Shown here: positions 2,625 to 61,791 of the stretch, piece by piece
Numbering within the stretch: position 1 is the first letter of the stretch
Layout of the letters: the number at the start of each line of letters is the position of its first letter
Assembly: GCA_947627995.1 (NCBI GenBank)
Contig: CANQYE010000001.1
Span: forward strand, 8,889-72,888
Reading direction: 5' to 3'
DNA: 64,000 nt
Source of the DNA: an uncultured Bacilli bacterium
Lineage (GTDB): Bacteria > Bacillota_I > Bacilli_A > RF39 > UBA660
Notes under the pieces: generated by a model
Seen by the model: the letters and a program-made list of their open reading frames with translations, nothing else
Databases searched by the model: none
What the model was told of the DNA's origin: nothing
Made by a program: the position numbers and the translations under genes

Positions 2625-2760
2625 AAAAGATATACTAATATTAAATAAAAAGCGAGTACCAGAGACAGTAGGTATAAAAGTAAATCCTACCGAGGAAAAG
2701 TAAATGAAATTATAAAATAATTTTACTTTCCCTTGGGAAAGTTTTTAATTTATAAGGAGG
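2625..2760 (+). promoter_or_regulatory. Putative L10(L12) autoregulatory leader in the rplA-rplJ intergenic region
   Basis: 147-nt spacer with a hairpin (GTAGGTATAAAAGTAAATCCTAC). Its position matches the ribosomal-protein L10 leader of Firmicutes. Confidence 0.35.
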
Positions 2761-5890: not shown

Positions 5891-6838
5891 ATGAAAAAAA
5901 GAAAAAAGAAGCGTTTTAAATTAAAAAGAAGCATTAAATTTTTATTATTTTTAATAATTATAATAATTATTTTGTTTCCAAATTTTAAAAATAATGAAAA
6001 AAATATAACAAACAAATCGGATATTAAAACATGTTTAAATAATTATAAAGTAGATATGGAAGATGAAAAGCAAGAATTAGATAGTTATTTAAGTAATTAT
6101 AAAGTTTCTGTTTTATATCAAAATAAAGTAGATGATTTATCATATAAATATAATGAAGAAGAAGCATATTATTCAGCAAGTACAATTAAAATTATTGATG
6201 CCTTATATATTTATGAAAAAGCTGAAAAACAAGAAATTAATTTAGCTAGTCATATTAATAACTTAAATGATGTAAATAAGGCTAATAGTAAAATAATCAA
6301 TAGTAGTAATATTAAAGATTTAACAATTCGTGATTTAGTTAAATATTTAATAACTTTTTCAGACAATAGAGCACATATTTTACTTGTTAATAATTATGGT
6401 TTTAATACTTTAAGTAATTTTAATAAATCATTAGGAACTAATTATTATATTAAAAATTATGATTATTATACTACAATTAATTTACATGATGCTAATATTT
6501 ATTTAAATAGATTATATAAATATTTATCTAGTAATGGAAAATATAGTAACGAATTAAAAGAATATTTTGCTAATAAAAATGATAATTATATTAATTTGGA
6601 TGAAAGAAATATTGCTTCTTCTCATAAATTTGGTTATTATGGTACATATTTCCATGATATTGGTATTATTTATGATAATAATCCATATTTAATTGCTGTT
6701 TTAACAAAAGAAGCAAATAATGATTATGCTAATATTATACATAATATATCCTTAAAAATTAATGATTTTCATAAAAAATATTATATAAAAAAAGAATTAG
6801 GCTGTTTATTAAAAGAAGTAAAATCTTTTAATAAATAG
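5891..6838 (+). CDS. Membrane-anchored class A beta-lactamase-like serine hydrolase
   Basis: Polybasic N-terminus plus hydrophobic anchor. STIK (SxxK), FSDN (SDN), and KFG in place of KTG. Confidence 0.5.
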   Translation: MKKRKKKRFKLKRSIKFLLFLIIIIIILFPNFKNNEKNITNKSDIKTCLNNYKVDMEDEKQELDSYLSNYKVSVLYQNKVDDLSYKYNEEEAYYSASTIKIIDALYIYEKAEKQEINLASHINNLNDVNKANSKIINSSNIKDLTIRDLVKYLITFSDNRAHILLVNNYGFNTLSNFNKSLGTNYYIKNYDYYTTINLHDANIYLNRLYKYLSSNGKYSNELKEYFANKNDNYINLDERNIASSHKFGYYGTYFHDIGIIYDNNPYLIAVLTKEANNDYANIIHNISLKINDFHKKYYIKKELGCLLKEVKSFNK

Positions 6839-6842
6839 TTTT

Positions 6843-8078
6843 TTAATTCTTTTGAAATATTTTATTTAATTTATTAGATTTTAATAATGAATTATATGCT
6901 TTTTCATTAATTACTAAATCAGCTTCGCCAAAAAATTCAAATACTCGTGGATTAAAACCAAATTTGAATCTATTTAATCCATTATAAGGGTTTTCTTTAG
7001 AAAAGTCTCCTGTTAGGCCGTTTAAATCAGCAAATTTAAATTCGTCTTTATAATAATTTAAAATCTCATAATGAAGGAAATAATTTGGACAAAAGCTTTT
7101 ATATTTTTTATTATAGCCACTCATCGAAAAATAGATTCTATTTTCATATTTAATTACTAATGCACCCGCAATATACTCATTATTTCCTTCTTTTAAACCA
7201 TTAGTGGCTTTAATAATATTATTTTTAAGAATGGTAATAATTTTATCAGATTCCATTTTTTTATTAATATTTGTTTTAGTTGGTTTAGTTTTTATAATTT
7301 CATTATATTCATTATTTTTTTTCATTTCTTCATCATACAATGATTGCATGTTAATTAAATATTTTTCATAATTTATTTTGACTAAAAACAAATCTATTAA
7401 ATCATTTCTACTAAATACATTAAAATAATCTTTATAATAATTTACATCATTATTTCTTTTGCTTTTTACAAAATTATAAAATATATCAATTTTATCATAT
7501 GATACAACTTCTAACTCTAAACCTTTTTGATAACCTTTTCTTATTTTATTGCGTGTGTTTTTTAAACATTTTTCTAAAGAAAATTTTTGAAGGTTTATTA
7601 TCCCATTAAATCTTGGTATCAATGATTCAAAATGAGTAGATTGTTTTAAATATTTATAGCCTAAAGAATTTAAAGAATTAATTAAAGAAGTATTACTATT
7701 ATAAATAGTTTTGTAATTATCTTTATATTTAACTTCACCAATAGCAATTTCTGGATTTATTTTAATAAACACAAAATTTTTTTTAGAATAATATTCTCTT
7801 AAATCTTTAGTGAAATTATTTAATAAAGTATCATTAAAATAATCTAAAAGGAATCCACTAGGAGCGTAGCCATAAAAAGAATTCCAACCAATCTTTTTAT
7901 AAATAATTAAGCTCGCTGCAACTATTTTATCATTATAATCTACATAACCAATAAAATCATAATCAAAGCCTTGCTCACTCATTAATAAAGCGTAATTTGA
8001 TGTTTGACGATAATTTTTTAAAGGACTACTTTTAGCAAATTCATCAAATTCAAAAATAGTTAACTCTTTTATTTTCAT
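6843..8078 (-). CDS. FemAB-family aminoacyl-tRNA-dependent peptidoglycan interpeptide-bridge transferase
   Basis: Co-linear similarity to S. aureus FemA over the N-terminus (MKIKELTIFEFDEFAKSSPLKNYRQTSNYALL...). Length 411 aa. Confidence 0.8.
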   Translation of the reverse strand: MKIKELTIFEFDEFAKSSPLKNYRQTSNYALLMSEQGFDYDFIGYVDYNDKIVAASLIIYKKIGWNSFYGYAPSGFLLDYFNDTLLNNFTKDLREYYSKKNFVFIKINPEIAIGEVKYKDNYKTIYNSNTSLINSLNSLGYKYLKQSTHFESLIPRFNGIINLQKFSLEKCLKNTRNKIRKGYQKGLELEVVSYDKIDIFYNFVKSKRNNDVNYYKDYFNVFSRNDLIDLFLVKINYEKYLINMQSLYDEEMKKNNEYNEIIKTKPTKTNINKKMESDKIITILKNNIIKATNGLKEGNNEYIAGALVIKYENRIYFSMSGYNKKYKSFCPNYFLHYEILNYYKDEFKFADLNGLTGDFSKENPYNGLNRFKFGFNPRVFEFFGEADLVINEKAYNSLLKSNKLNKIFQKN

Positions 8079-8181
8079 AGCTTTCTCCTTTACTCAGTAT
8101 AGAAATTATATCATAAAATATAATATTATAGTAGTTAAAAAAGAATAATTTATGATATAATTGTAAAAAGGAAGTGATATT

Positions 8182-9759
8182 ATGCAAGATAATTCAAAAT
8201 TTTATATAACCACACCTATATATTATCCAAGTAATAAATTTACTTTAGGAAATTGTTATACTACAGTTGCTTGTGATGCAATTGCTAGATTTAATAGAAT
8301 GTTAGGAAGAGATGTTTTTTATTTAACAGGGACTGATGAACATGGCGAAAAAATAGCAAAGATTGCTAAAGAAAATAATAAAACTGAAATAGAGTATCTT
8401 GATGAGATGATAGCTGATGCAAAAGAGTTATGGAAGATTTTAAACATTTCATATGATGATTTTATTCGAACTACAGAAAAACGTCATGAAGTAGTTGTTA
8501 ATATGGTTATGAAAAAACTTTATGAAAAGGGAGAGATTTACAAATCTACATACAATGATTGGTATTGTACTCCTTGCGAGTCATTTTGGACTGAATCTCA
8601 ATTAATTGATGGAAAATGTCCCGATTGTGGAAGAGAAGTCCATGAAGAAAAAGAGGAAGCATACTTTTTTAGACTAAGTAATTATACTGATAAAATTTTA
8701 GATTTATATAAAAATAATGAAGATTTTTTATTACCTAAATCAAGAGTCCACGAAATGGTTAATAATTTTTTAAAAGATGGATTAAAAGATTTATGCGTTA
8801 GTAGAACTAGTGTTAAATGGGGTATACCGGTTGAATTCGATAAAAGTCATACAGTTTATGTTTGGGTAGATGCTTTAACTAATTATATCTCTGCGTTAGG
8901 TTATGGCTCAAATGATGATAAGTTTAATAAATATTGGCCTGCAGATGTGCATGTTGTTGGTAAAGAAATAGTTAGATTTCATGCTATTATTTGGCCTGCT
9001 TTACTTATGGCTTTAGATTTGCCGTTACCAAAACAAATACTTGGACATGGATGGTTATTATTTGGAGGAGATAAGCTTTCTAAAAGTAAAAAAAATACAT
9101 CAAAAGATGTTTTAGATCCAAGAATTTTAGTTAGTAGATATTCATCTGATGCGGTACGTTTATATCTATTAAAAGAAGTTCCATTTGGAAGTGATGGTAT
9201 TTATACACAAGAATTATTTCTGAATTCTTATAATGCAAATTTATCTAATACAATAGGCAATTTAGTATCTAGAACAATTTCAATGATAGAAAAATATAAC
9301 GAAGGTATAATTCCTTCTAAAAAGGAAATAATAGATTTAGATAGTAAATATATTGAAGATATTAAATCAAACATTAAAAATACTTTTGATTTTATGAAAA
9401 TATATGATATTTCTTCAGCATTAAATGAAGTTTTGAATATATTTAATAGATCTAATAAATATATTGATGAGACTACACCTTGGATATTAGCAAAGGAAAA
9501 TAATAAAGGACGTCTTGATTCGGTGTTATATAATTTATCAGAAGTAATTTTAAAAGGGGCTACTTTATTATTACCATTTTTAACTGAACAACCAAAAAAA
9601 ATATTTGAAGCTTTTGGCGTATTAGAAGTTAAAGATTTTAAAAATATATTAGACTTTGATATATTAGAATCTGGAATTAAAGTTAAACATATTAATGCTT
9701 TATATCAAAGGTTAGATATTAAAAAAGAAAATGAAGAATTGTGGGATTTAAATGTTTAA
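8182..9759 (+). CDS. metG: Methionyl-tRNA synthetase homolog (short form, 525 aa) with degenerate HIGH motif (TLGN)
   Basis: [26 protein letters not shown] aligns to B. subtilis [26 protein letters not shown]. Zinc knuckle CTPCES...CPDCG present. KLSKS stands in place of KMSKS. Confidence 0.8.
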   Translation: [525 protein letters not shown]

Positions 9760-40575: not shown

Positions 40576-40652
40576 GTCCTCGTAGCACAACTGGAAAATG
40601 CAGTCGCCTCCTAAGCGACAGATTGGAGGTTCAAATCCTCTCGGGGACGCCA
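40576..40652 (+). tRNA. tRNA-Arg (anticodon CCU), CCA encoded
   Basis: Hand-folded cloverleaf. Acceptor GTCCTCG/CGGGGAC. Anticodon stem GTCGC/GCGAC with loop CTCCTAA. T-arm GGAGG-TTCAAAT-CCTCT. Length 77 nt. Confidence 0.9.
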
Positions 40653-41887: not shown

Positions 41888-42658
41888 ATGGCGAAGACAA
41901 ATAGAGGTAAAACTATTGCTGTTTTTTCTGCAAAAGGCGGAGTTGGGAAAACGGTTTTTACTTTAAATTTAGCTGGAATATATAAACAACTTAATAAAAA
42001 AGTTTTAATAATAGATCTTGATTTAACAAATGGGGGTATAGCTTTATCATTGAATAGAAGAGTAGATAGAACAATCTATAATTTATTTGATGATTTAAAT
42101 AATAATCGTTATAAAGAATTTAAAGATTATGTAACAAACTATGAAAAAAATTTAGATTTTATTGCTTGTCCTAAAGATCCAAGAGATGCAAATAAAATTG
42201 ATGCAAAATATATCGATATTATTATCGAGCGAGCTTCGTATTTATATGACGCAGTAATTTTAGATACTTCTCATGTATTAAATGATATTAATTTAGTTGC
42301 TCTTGATAAAGTAGATAAAATTTTATTTTTAGTTACAAATGATCCTTTAGATTTAAAAAATGTTAAGTCTTTAATAAGTATATTTAAAAATTTAGATAAA
42401 ACAAATTATAAAATGATTTTAAATAATTCTTGCAATTTAAATAAAGATTATTTTTCATTATATGATATCAAAAATATTTTAAAAACAAATATTGATTATA
42501 TTTTAACTCAAAATTTTTATATCAAGAACATAGATATATTTCTTCTTAATGGGAAAATATTTATTATGGATAAGAAGATTGCTTCATCCAAAGATTATGG
42601 AGTAATGTTAACTATCGCAACTGATATATTTAAAGAAGGTGATGGAAAAAATGAGTAA
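41888..42658 (+). CDS. ParA/MinD-family ATPase, TadZ/CpaE-like
   Basis: Deviant Walker A AVFSAKGGVGKT. Sits upstream of the CpaF-type ATPase. Confidence 0.6.
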   Translation: MAKTNRGKTIAVFSAKGGVGKTVFTLNLAGIYKQLNKKVLIIDLDLTNGGIALSLNRRVDRTIYNLFDDLNNNRYKEFKDYVTNYEKNLDFIACPKDPRDANKIDAKYIDIIIERASYLYDAVILDTSHVLNDINLVALDKVDKILFLVTNDPLDLKNVKSLISIFKNLDKTNYKMILNNSCNLNKDYFSLYDIKNILKTNIDYILTQNFYIKNIDIFLLNGKIFIMDKKIASSKDYGVMLTIATDIFKEGDGKNE

Positions 42659-43973
42659 GTCTTTAATTGAAGAATTTAATGTTAAAGTAAATAAGCAAAA
42701 ACCTTATATAGTAAATGATTATGATATTTTTCCAGATAAAAATTTATTAGATGAATTACGTAATAAGATAATTGGTAATTTAATTGATAAAGAAATTCCT
42801 AAAGAAAAAATTAATGAGTTTATTGATGATGAAATAAATTTGGCTTTAGAGGGGCATAATTTAACCAATTTAGAAAGAAGTCATATATATAATTTAATTG
42901 ATAATGAAATAAATGGTTTTGGGCCTTTAAATGAAATTTTGAAAGATAATAATGTAACAGAAATAATGGTAAATAGTCCTAAAGAAATTTATATAGAAAC
43001 TGATGGAAAATTAGTTAGAGATGAAAGTATTTCATTTATTAATAATGAACATATTATTAGAACTATTCAAAGGCTTATCTCACCGATGGGTAAAACAATA
43101 AATACTAAAAATCCTATTGTTGACTCAAGGCTAATGGATGGTTCAAGGATTAATGCTGTAATCCCACCATTATCTATTAAAGGTCCAGTATTAACTATTC
43201 GTAAATTTAAGCCTTATTTAAATACAATTGATGATTTAATAAGATCTGGTTCTTTAACACCATATATGGCAAGATTTCTTGAAGCTGCTGTAATTGGTAA
43301 ATTGAACATTATTATTTGTGGTGGATCAGGAAGTGGAAAAACAACTCTTTTAAATATTTTAAGTAGTTTTATAAACGATAATGAAAGAATTATTACTATT
43401 GAAGATGCCGCAGAATTAAAATTAAAACAAAAACATGTATTATCCTTAGAAACACGTCCGAATAATTATGAAAATGAAGGAGAAATTACTATTCGTGATT
43501 TAGTAATCAATTCATTAAGAATGCGACCTGATAGAATTATTGTCGGTGAAGTTCGTGGGAAAGAAGCATTTGATATGATGCAAGCTATGAATACTGGACA
43601 TGATGGGTCAATTACTACTCTTCATGCTAATAGTCCTAAAGATGCTTTAAATAGGTTAGAGACAATGGTTATGATGAGTGATATGGGTCTTCCACTAAAT
43701 GCTGTAAAAGAATATATTTATAATGCAATAGATTTAGTTATAAATGTTGAACGATTAAGTGATGGTAGACGAAAAATAACAAGTATATGTGAAGTTGATA
43801 AAATAGAGGATAATGAAATAAAGTTAAAAGAGATATTTGCTTTTAAAATTAATGGATTATCTTCAAAAAATATGGTTACAGGAGAATATATTTTATATAA
43901 ATTTATTCCAAAAGTTTTTTATAAACTAAAGAAAAGAGGAATTACATCTTTAAGTGATATTTTTGAAAAATAA
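42651..43973 (+). CDS. CpaF/TadA-type (VirB11-like) secretion ATPase
   Basis: NVTEIMVNSPKEIYIE. Walker A GGSGSGKTTLLN. Walker B, His box and Asp box present. Confidence 0.8.
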   Translation: MSKSLIEEFNVKVNKQKPYIVNDYDIFPDKNLLDELRNKIIGNLIDKEIPKEKINEFIDDEINLALEGHNLTNLERSHIYNLIDNEINGFGPLNEILKDNNVTEIMVNSPKEIYIETDGKLVRDESISFINNEHIIRTIQRLISPMGKTINTKNPIVDSRLMDGSRINAVIPPLSIKGPVLTIRKFKPYLNTIDDLIRSGSLTPYMARFLEAAVIGKLNIIICGGSGSGKTTLLNILSSFINDNERIITIEDAAELKLKQKHVLSLETRPNNYENEGEITIRDLVINSLRMRPDRIIVGEVRGKEAFDMMQAMNTGHDGSITTLHANSPKDALNRLETMVMMSDMGLPLNAVKEYIYNAIDLVINVERLSDGRRKITSICEVDKIEDNEIKLKEIFAFKINGLSSKNMVTGEYILYKFIPKVFYKLKKRGITSLSDIFEK

Positions 43974-60370: not shown

Positions 60371-60619
60371 GTGGTTGTAATGCATATTGCAAGTAATATC
60401 AAATCTTTTTTATATGATGAAGATTATTTTGTGACGTATTATAAAAATAATGTTTATGTCTATAATTATCAAAAGTTAAATATTTTTACTAATAATGTTA
60501 TAGAGTTATTAATGGATAATTTCTCTTTAATTATAAAAGGGTCTAATTTAAAAATAATTAAAATGGAGTCCAAAGAAATTATGATTAGTGGAAAAATAGA
60601 AAGTATAGGTTTAAAATGA
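60371..60619 (+). CDS. yqfC: YqfC/YabP-family sporulation protein
   Basis: Beta-rich pattern NLKIIKMESKEIMISGKIESIG typical of YabP/YqfC. Followed by a YqfD-like gene. Confidence 0.5.
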   Translation: MVVMHIASNIKSFLYDEDYFVTYYKNNVYVYNYQKLNIFTNNVIELLMDNFSLIIKGSNLKIIKMESKEIMISGKIESIGLK

Positions 60620-61791
60620 AAAATATTATTGATGAAAATAAAAAACATTATGTTACTATAAATATAAAAGGGAAAAATTTAAAAAATTTAATTTTAAATT
60701 TAGTTAATAAAAATATTCCACTAAAAAAAATTAATGAGGATAAAGATGAATTAACATTAACAATATTAGAAAATGATTATAAAAATATAAAAAAAGATTA
60801 TAAAAATTATAAAATTAGAAAAATAAATGATGTTGGAATTTATAAGATAAAAGATTTCTTCAATAAATATAATCTTTTTATTTTAATGATTGTTTTAGGA
60901 TTAATATTATTATTTTTTTTATCTAATATTATTATTAGTGTTAAAGTTATTCATAATGATAAATATTTAAGAAATTTAGTTTTAAATGAATTAGAAGATT
61001 CAGGCATTAAAAAATTTAGTTTTAAAAAAAATTATGATGAAATAAATAAAATAAAAAATCGTATTATTAATAAGTATCCAGATAATATTGAATGGTTAGA
61101 AATAGAAATAAAAGGAATGAAAGTTATTGTACATTTAGAAGAAAGAATTCTTAATAAGAATTCTTCTAAAGAAAATGATTGTGATATTGTAGCAAAAAAA
61201 GATGCTATAATTACAAAAATAACTGCTTCTAAAGGAGAGATAAAAAAGGATGAATTTGATTTTGTAAAAGCTGGCGATGTTATAATTACAGGTAATATTG
61301 CTGTAAATGAAGAAACTAAAAAATTATTATGTGCAAAAGGAAAAGTTTATGGAGAAGTATGGTATAGCGCAAAAATTTCTTTACCATTAAATTATTATAA
61401 AAAGGTTTATACTGGCAAAAAAAGAATGAATATTGGAATTGGGATTAAAAAGCCTAAGTCAATTTTTAAAATAAAATATGATAATTATGATATTAAAAGA
61501 AAAAAAATCTTTAATTTATTTAATTGGAAAATTTATTCAGAAGAAATAAAAGAAGTGAAATTACAAAAAGAAAAATATACCGAAAAAGAGGCAATGGAGA
61601 AAGTAATTGCAATAATACTTGAAAAATTTGATATTAAATTATCTAATGGTGAATATATTATTTCTCAAAAAGTTTTGAAAAAAGAAATAATTAATAGTAC
61701 AATAAATGTAGAAGTGTTTATAGCAGTTAATGAAAGAATTGATTCATTAGCTTATATTCAAAAAGAAAAAGAGGAAAAAAAGATTGAATAA
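60616..61791 (+). CDS. yqfD: YqfD-like stage IV sporulation membrane protein
   Basis: 391 aa with a single TM near residue 95. Position yqfC-yqfD-...-ybeY-dgkA as in Bacillus. Confidence 0.5.
   Translation: MKNIIDENKKHYVTINIKGKNLKNLILNLVNKNIPLKKINEDKDELTLTILENDYKNIKKDYKNYKIRKINDVGIYKIKDFFNKYNLFILMIVLGLILLFFLSNIIISVKVIHNDKYLRNLVLNELEDSGIKKFSFKKNYDEINKIKNRIINKYPDNIEWLEIEIKGMKVIVHLEERILNKNSSKENDCDIVAKKDAIITKITASKGEIKKDEFDFVKAGDVIITGNIAVNEETKKLLCAKGKVYGEVWYSAKISLPLNYYKKVYTGKKRMNIGIGIKKPKSIFKIKYDNYDIKRKKIFNLFNWKIYSEEIKEVKLQKEKYTEKEAMEKVIAIILEKFDIKLSNGEYIISQKVLKKEIINSTINVEVFIAVNERIDSLAYIQKEKEEKKIE

Follow-up and report, generated by a model that had tools for sequence, protein, structure and literature searches.

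A MetRS1-type methionyl-tRNA synthetase with a TrpRS-like TLGN signature in a clade of uncultured Clostridia

The window examined here is a stretch of 64,000 nucleotides from an uncultured Bacilli bacterium of the GTDB lineage RF39/UBA660 (contig CANQYE010000001.1) and it carries metG, a gene for a methionyl-tRNA synthetase (MetRS) in which both class I signature motifs are altered. The open reading frame (ORF) is intact and begins with ATG. Aligned to the Staphylococcus aureus enzyme it encodes TLGN where HIGH is expected and KLSKS in place of KMSKS, just as a first-pass annotation of the DNA had read them. That annotation left a choice between an inactive or catalytically unusual paralog and an atypical sole MetRS, and the evidence favours the second over the first. 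The gene is very probably the working, housekeeping MetRS of its organism, a MetRS1 orthologue with a signature like that of tryptophanyl-tRNA synthetase (TrpRS), and the enzyme is predicted to be active. It belongs to a clade of uncultured Clostridia, most of them from the gut and related to the Christensenellales, in which T-[L/I]-G-N (TxGN) has taken the place of HIGH and KLSKS that of KMSKS, and in which the enzyme no longer has its C-terminal tRNA-binding domain.

In class I synthetases the two histidines of HIGH are commonly regarded as hallmark contacts to ATP and the transition state. Of H-x-G-H the window protein retains only the glycine, and TLGN is treated here as a variant of the signature rather than as grounds for exclusion from the MetRS family. 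The protein scores 711.3 bits against the NCBIfam MetRS equivalog NF008900, 113 bits above the cut-off of 598, and 490 bits against a further MetRS equivalog, TIGR00398 (cut-off 336.35), while the Pfam MetRS family PF09334 (tRNA-synt_1g) is matched with an E value of 1.8e-102. Its best relative of solved structure in HMMER searches is S. aureus MetRS (7wpi, 563 bits). The AlphaFold2 (AF2) model of the window protein has a mean predicted local distance difference test score (pLDDT) of 89.8 and a predicted template modelling score (pTM) of 0.90, and can be superimposed onto 7wpi with a template modelling score (TM) of 0.92 and a root-mean-square deviation (rmsd) of 2.1 Å. Foldseek comparisons of the model with S. 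aureus MetRS structures give TM values of 0.92-0.93 and rmsd values of 1.5-2.1 Å. Taken together, Pfam, AF2 and Foldseek recover the MetRS1 domain set, composed of a Rossmann core, a connective-peptide (CP) domain with one zinc knuckle, a stem-contact fold and a helical domain for anticodon binding, the last of which is helical in the model with pLDDT above 90. This domain order is shared with the MetRS1 enzymes of S. aureus (7wpi) and B. subtilis (MetS), to which identity is about 51% over the whole catalytic core. The first Rossmann helix, whose N-terminus holds TLGN, begins at residue 22 in the model, and the only part of low pLDDT is the KLSKS loop, as expected of the mobile KMSKS loop.

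Outside the signatures the active site is that of a conventional MetRS. The methionine pocket of the window protein is formed by P12, W228, A231, L232, Y235, I263, F266 and H267, and these are identical to P11, W237, A240, L241, Y244, I273, F276 and H277, the methionine-pocket residues of S. aureus MetRS (PMC9071491). In an alignment of 192 sequences that covers TxGN and canonical MetRS alike, 138 columns are at least 95% conserved, among them the methionine pocket, D52, the four zinc-knuckle cysteines and K298, S300, K301 and S302, so that both lysines of the signature loop are kept. Clade-specific columns number 14 only, and three of these are the TLGN motif itself. The first-pass annotation was right to describe the zinc knuckle and the anticodon-binding region as conserved: the four cysteines are present and PF19303 is matched. 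The retained knuckle is a point of difference from the S. aureus enzyme, in which the zinc motif has been lost. In comparison with the S. aureus and B. subtilis enzymes the window protein further differs by TLGN, by KLSKS, by a short insertion behind the signature loop and by its C-terminus. In the NF008900 profile of 648 positions it runs out at position 518 and thus lacks the C-terminal tRNA-binding domain, as had also been recognised at first pass, and no stand-alone tRNA-binding domain was found in the 64-kb window. A C-terminus as short as this is common in MetRS, with many representatives and solved structures being 500-530 amino acids (aa) long.

The altered signature is not peculiar to the window. 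Among the 120 closest protein clusters at 90% identity (59-100% identity to the window protein), 113 carry TLGN, four TIGN, two TLGH and one HIGH, and KLSKS is found in all 120. A neighbour-joining tree of 192 sequences combined these clusters with the MetRS of 80 GTDB genomes, the GTDB set being the best 80 loci among the matches listed, with the window's own species not among them. The tree gathers the TxGN sequences into one clade of 124 with two TLGH sequences nested inside, on a short stem branch of 0.039. Recurrence of TLGN in a clade, which the first-pass annotation had posed as a question, is thus found in a monophyletic group of at least 124 TxGN/TLGH sequences. All TxGN members are about 510-545 aa long, and the TxGN carriers among the 80 GTDB loci are without exception uncultured metagenome-assembled genomes (MAGs) labelled Clostridia, Catabacter or Firmicutes. 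The sister group comprises 10 members of 639-670 aa in which the C-terminal domain is kept, several of them from MAGs named Christensenellaceae, Christensenella or Christensenellales. Its signature pairs are mixed and include HIGH/KLSKS, HLGT/KISKS, HIGT/KMSKS, HIGH/KMSKS and HLGH/KMSKS.

The motif is encoded in different ways within the clade. In the window and five GTDB TxGN loci threonine is encoded by ACT, ACA or ACG, leucine by TTA, CTT or TTG, glycine by GGA, GGT or GGC and asparagine by AAT or AAC. T-[L/I]-G-N is under strong purifying selection across the clade, a sign of an optimised rather than a decayed solution. A compositional bias towards AT was considered as the cause of TLGN and ruled out, as the TLGN loci span 24-41% GC, several synonymous codons are in use and the motifs of cysteinyl-tRNA synthetase (CysRS) are intact. 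In a 71%-identity relative the CysRS encoded close to the TLGN metG retains HLGH and KMSKS, which shows the motif change to be specific to MetRS. The probability of a sequencing or assembly artefact, or of a pseudogene, is negligible. The unusual motif is the one feature that would suit such an explanation, which is refuted by the contig copies, the related clusters and the synonymous codon variation. The frame is intact, the motif recurs in more than 120 related clusters, and the gene is present on six independent metagenome contigs with motif codons identical to those of the window copy, which bears out the first-pass judgement that TLGN is no sequencing error. The polymorphisms seen within the species, between these contigs and the window, are four synonymous third-position changes and no nonsynonymous change; the changes occur in four of the six contigs and the other two are identical to the window.

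Gene order also speaks for orthology. In one TLGN locus (L007) metG lies beside spmB, spmA, tatD and ksgA, and in a HIGH-bearing locus of the sister group (L012) the order is spmB-spmA-metG-tatD-ksgA, the classical neighbourhood of metG in Firmicutes. This shared neighbourhood indicates positional orthology of the TLGN and HIGH genes. Other TLGN metG genes lie among housekeeping genes, including those for ribosomal proteins, gyrB/gyrA, dnaB and the dcw cluster.

These observations bear on the reading of the gene as a MetRS paralog, inactive or with a new function, in a genome that has a canonical metG at another place. Such a protein might bind methionine or tRNAMet but not adenylate, or might supply a process that depends on aminoacyl-tRNA, such as that of FemAB transferases. 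This is very unlikely. Replacement of both HIGH histidines would be in keeping with a paralog, as would the finding that the H21A mutation kills the MetRS of Mycobacterium tuberculosis (PMC6038951), but the other catalytic, zinc, methionine-pocket and anticodon residues of the window protein are all conserved and its score lies well above the equivalog cut-off. The clade has a short stem, its sister in the tree is the Christensenellales-type MetRS, one of its genes occupies the canonical metG-tatD-ksgA locus, and a tblastn search of the whole window with the protein matched its own gene alone, so that there is no second MetRS within these 64 kb. A gene for a FemAB-family transferase does adjoin metG in divergent orientation, as the first-pass annotation had pointed out with reference to the use of aminoacyl-tRNA by such enzymes. 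The adjacency is kept in the 73%-identity relative alone, the closest examined, and is found neither in the 69%-identity relative nor in the other TLGN loci examined. A functional link between FemAB and metG was rejected on the grounds that their adjacency is not conserved, and the placement of FemAB looks incidental.

MetRS paralogs do exist in Clostridia, and the one real example seen is far more degenerate than the window protein. It is a 458-aa MetRS-like protein of Clostridium sp. MAG S30M_St_27 (locus L026, NZ_JAUNLM010000002.1, 8025-9401, forward strand), encoded immediately downstream of an ordinary metG of 653 aa with HIGN/KMSKS. Like the window protein it derives from class I MetRS and has a non-canonical signature (HLGR), but identity to the window protein is only about 25%, there is no KMSKS loop (LEGKDFSTN is found instead) and no zinc knuckle, and its TIGR00398 score of 303 bits falls short of the cut-off (336). 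Degenerate paralogs of this sort are what the first-pass annotation had in mind. The window protein appears to show none of these signs of decay.

The sister group makes it possible to order the changes that led to the TxGN enzymes. A Lys-bearing insertion of four to five residues (KNTSK in the window protein) follows directly on KLSKSK and is not present in KMSKS-type MetRS1. It is common to the TxGN clade and to four HIGH-bearing sisters (P0094, L012, L013 and L017), its lysine is conserved, and these sisters also have KLSKS, so both features predate the change from HIGH to TLGN. The likely order of events is therefore KLSKS and the insertion first, followed by the replacement of HIGH with TLGN together with the loss of the C-terminal domain. 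The remaining Christensenellales-type enzymes include HIGT and HLGT forms (L014-L016 and L059), and in contrast to the TxGN clade the Christensenellales-type MetRS keep the first histidine and a PF01588-type C-terminal domain. The insertion, being older than TLGN, may have made the change from HIGH to TLGN possible.

How unusual the individual substitutions are was gauged from 150 representatives of MetRS clusters at 50% identity, in about 140 of which the motif is readable. At the fourth position of HIGH about one MetRS1 representative in three has N, T, S or F, and in the GTDB sample two cultured species, Clostridium ihumii AP5 and Youngiibacter multivorans DSM 6139, have a MetRS with HIGN. 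The second position of KMSKS is M, I, L, V or F across the family, and in view of this variability KLSKS is a trivial variant. On this comparison KLSKS, Asn at the fourth position and the short C-terminus are ordinary features, and the rare one is Thr at the first position. Two further losses of the first histidine look separate from that of the TxGN clade and occur in otherwise KMSKS-type MetRS1. These are TIGH in the MetRS of a Clostridia MAG of 65% GC (L029, 6001-7581) and SIGH in P0285.

Two active enzymes have signatures reminiscent of TLGN. TrpRS uses TIGN as its equivalent of HIGH (PMC10201369, PMC3684856). The local pattern P-S-x-x-x-T-[I/L]-G-N-x-Y is common to the window protein and to the TrpRS of E. 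coli (8i1w) and B. stearothermophilus, with the E. coli enzyme reading PSGELTIGNY. Unlike the window protein TrpRS is a dimeric enzyme of subclass Ic with about 330 aa, and no TrpRS model is found among the NCBIfam or Pfam matches of the window protein. The likeness is convergent and confined to this motif. Human cytosolic MetRS, whose motifs are HIGN and KFSKS, is an active enzyme (PMC8216282) and resembles the window protein in having Asn as the fourth signature residue and a residue other than Met at the second position of KMSKS. In contrast to the window protein it is a eukaryotic enzyme of the MetRS2 type that keeps the first histidine and has extra appended domains. An inference from the loss of both histidines to lost catalysis is not supported, given the TIGN of TrpRS, the HIGN of human MetRS and the varied fourth position in roughly a third of the MetRS1 representatives.

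It is proposed that methionine activation with ATP and the charging of tRNAMet would proceed normally in the TLGN enzyme. In M. tuberculosis MetRS, where the signature is 18-HVGH-21, His18 hydrogen bonds to the adenine N7 and His21 to the α-phosphate (PMC6038951; bioRxiv 10.1101/2025.06.06.658285). In the window protein Asn24 could provide the hydrogen bond to the α-phosphate that the second histidine supplies in M. tuberculosis, and Thr21 may stand in for the contact of the first histidine, with either the adenine N7 or a phosphate, directly or via a water molecule as in TrpRS. The two lysines of KLSKS and the older Lys-bearing insertion of four to five residues would carry the stabilisation of the phosphates and the transition state.

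Several observations weigh against this proposal. The H21A mutation, which alters the fourth motif position, abolishes ATP-PPi exchange in M. tuberculosis MetRS (PMC6038951). The residue at that position is therefore important, and the enzyme may be served less well by Asn or Thr. The first histidine is near-invariant elsewhere in MetRS1, being lost in just one of the roughly 140 readable representatives (SIGH) and additionally in L029. Identity to Bacillus-type MetRS is 52% for the TxGN clade versus 57% for the sister group, a mild acceleration unlike the collapse of a true paralog. Finally, synteny with the canonical locus is seen in one TLGN lineage only, and the window metG is instead found beside the dcw cluster.

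The same observations are relevant to the idea that the protein is the sole MetRS but is catalytically altered, with a weaker affinity for ATP or slower adenylation that would be tolerated in slow-growing gut anaerobes, or with an altered geometry of the ATP site that would change its sensitivity to natural MetRS inhibitors or to ATP-site inhibitors. The rarity of first-histidine replacements in the family and the mildly accelerated divergence of the clade would be consistent with such an enzyme, as would the coupling of the motif change to the loss of the C-terminal tRNA-binding domain. In other MetRS the effect of this domain is to lower the Km for tRNA. Among natural MetRS wide differences in kinetics are tolerated, the wild-type M. 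tuberculosis enzyme being much slower than that of E. coli (PMC6038951). A catalytically altered enzyme is nevertheless unlikely, since TIGN in TrpRS and HIGN in human MetRS support normal catalysis and the exact T-[L/I]-G-N is under strong purifying selection across the clade. Quite unlikely, too, is a more far-reaching proposition, in which this MetRS lineage would have changed the chemistry of its ATP site by moving transition-state stabilisation away from the HIGH histidines to the KLSKS loop and the insertion, with altered kinetics or inhibitor sensitivity, or, in its radical form, would have a non-translational function beside an undetected canonical metG.

If the window protein is the housekeeping MetRS, as the evidence favours, TLGN is a variant of an enzyme and indicates no new system or pathway; its relevance is to synthetase enzymologists and annotators. 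The TxGN clade, with both histidines replaced by T-x-G-N under purifying selection, amounts to a natural experiment on how much of its signature a class Ia enzyme needs. The suggested order of changes, from KLSKS and the insertion to TLGN and domain loss, is open to mutagenesis. In many MAGs of gut Clostridia these essential genes would be flagged in error by motif-based annotation or by pseudogene filters that look for H-x-G-H. In the searchable literature no paper was found that pairs TLGN with MetRS, and the paper found with TLGN and aminoacyl-tRNA concerns a RecA inhibitor.

The features of metG and of other parts of the window are collected in Table 1.

Table 1. Location of metG, its motifs and domains, and further features of the window (position 1 is the first nucleotide of the window)
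Feature	Position	Strand	Basis or remark
metG, MetRS1-type methionyl-tRNA synthetase, 525 aa	8182..9759	+	Pfam, NCBIfam, best solved structure, AF2 model
Ribosome-binding site AGGAAGTG	8169..8176	+	Read from sequence; ATG 5 nt further on
TLGN, residues 21-24, codons ACT TTA GGA AAT	8242..8253	+	Opposite H-I-G-H of S. aureus MetRS (HMMER alignment)
Zn knuckle CxxC...CxxC (C129, C132, C146, C149), connective-peptide domain	8566..8628	+	Alignment
KLSKS, residues 298-302, KMSKS-signature loop	9073..9087	+	Opposite K-M-S-K-S of S. aureus MetRS, with a four-residue insertion behind it in that alignment
Lys-bearing insertion (KNTSK) directly after KLSKSK	9091..9105	+	Alignment
Helical anticodon-binding domain	9310..9744	+	Pfam PF19303 Anticodon_3, residues 377-521, 30.9 bits (cut-off 23.5)
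FemAB-family transferase, divergent neighbour of metG	6843..8078	-	PF02388, 205.8 bits
Alpha/beta-hydrolase, 240 aa	9752..10474	+	Pfam Abhydrolase_1 and Hydrolase_4
Beta-lactamase2 / D-Ala-D-Ala-carboxypeptidase-like protein, next to FemAB	5891-6838	+	
L10 leader	2641-2757	+	Rfam RF00557
ORF, 430 aa	19316-20608	+	No NCBIfam match at E <= 1e-10
tRNA-Arg(CCT)	40576-40652	+	
TadA/VirB11-type secretion ATPase	42639-43973	+	
ORF, 430 aa	48182-49474	+	No NCBIfam match at E <= 1e-10
Weak match to sporulation protein YqfD	60616-61791	+	Below cut-off, 183 bits vs 257

Upstream of metG a promoter scan returned 21 sites versus 21.5 expected in shuffled sequence, the region being AT-rich (24% GC), and no promoter is assigned here. 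Rfam matched no T-box or other leader near the gene. A T-box was rejected on this absence of a match and on the intergenic gap of 103 nt, which is too short. Downstream, the ATG of the hydrolase gene overlaps the metG stop codon, and the pair is kept in the relatives at 73% and 69% MetRS identity (L091 and L092). The hydrolase is probably co-transcribed with metG; it matches no specific NCBIfam family at cut-off. None of FemAB, the hydrolase, mraZ and rsmH is conserved around metG in the best 80 GTDB loci.

The FemAB and Beta-lactamase2-like genes lie just upstream of the mraZ-rsmH-ftsL-pbp (dcw) cluster, so that the metG of the window species is inserted in a neighbourhood of cell-wall genes. 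The window as a whole is 24.4% GC and its other content is housekeeping in nature, including dnaK, ftsA, typA, recD2 and mtaB.

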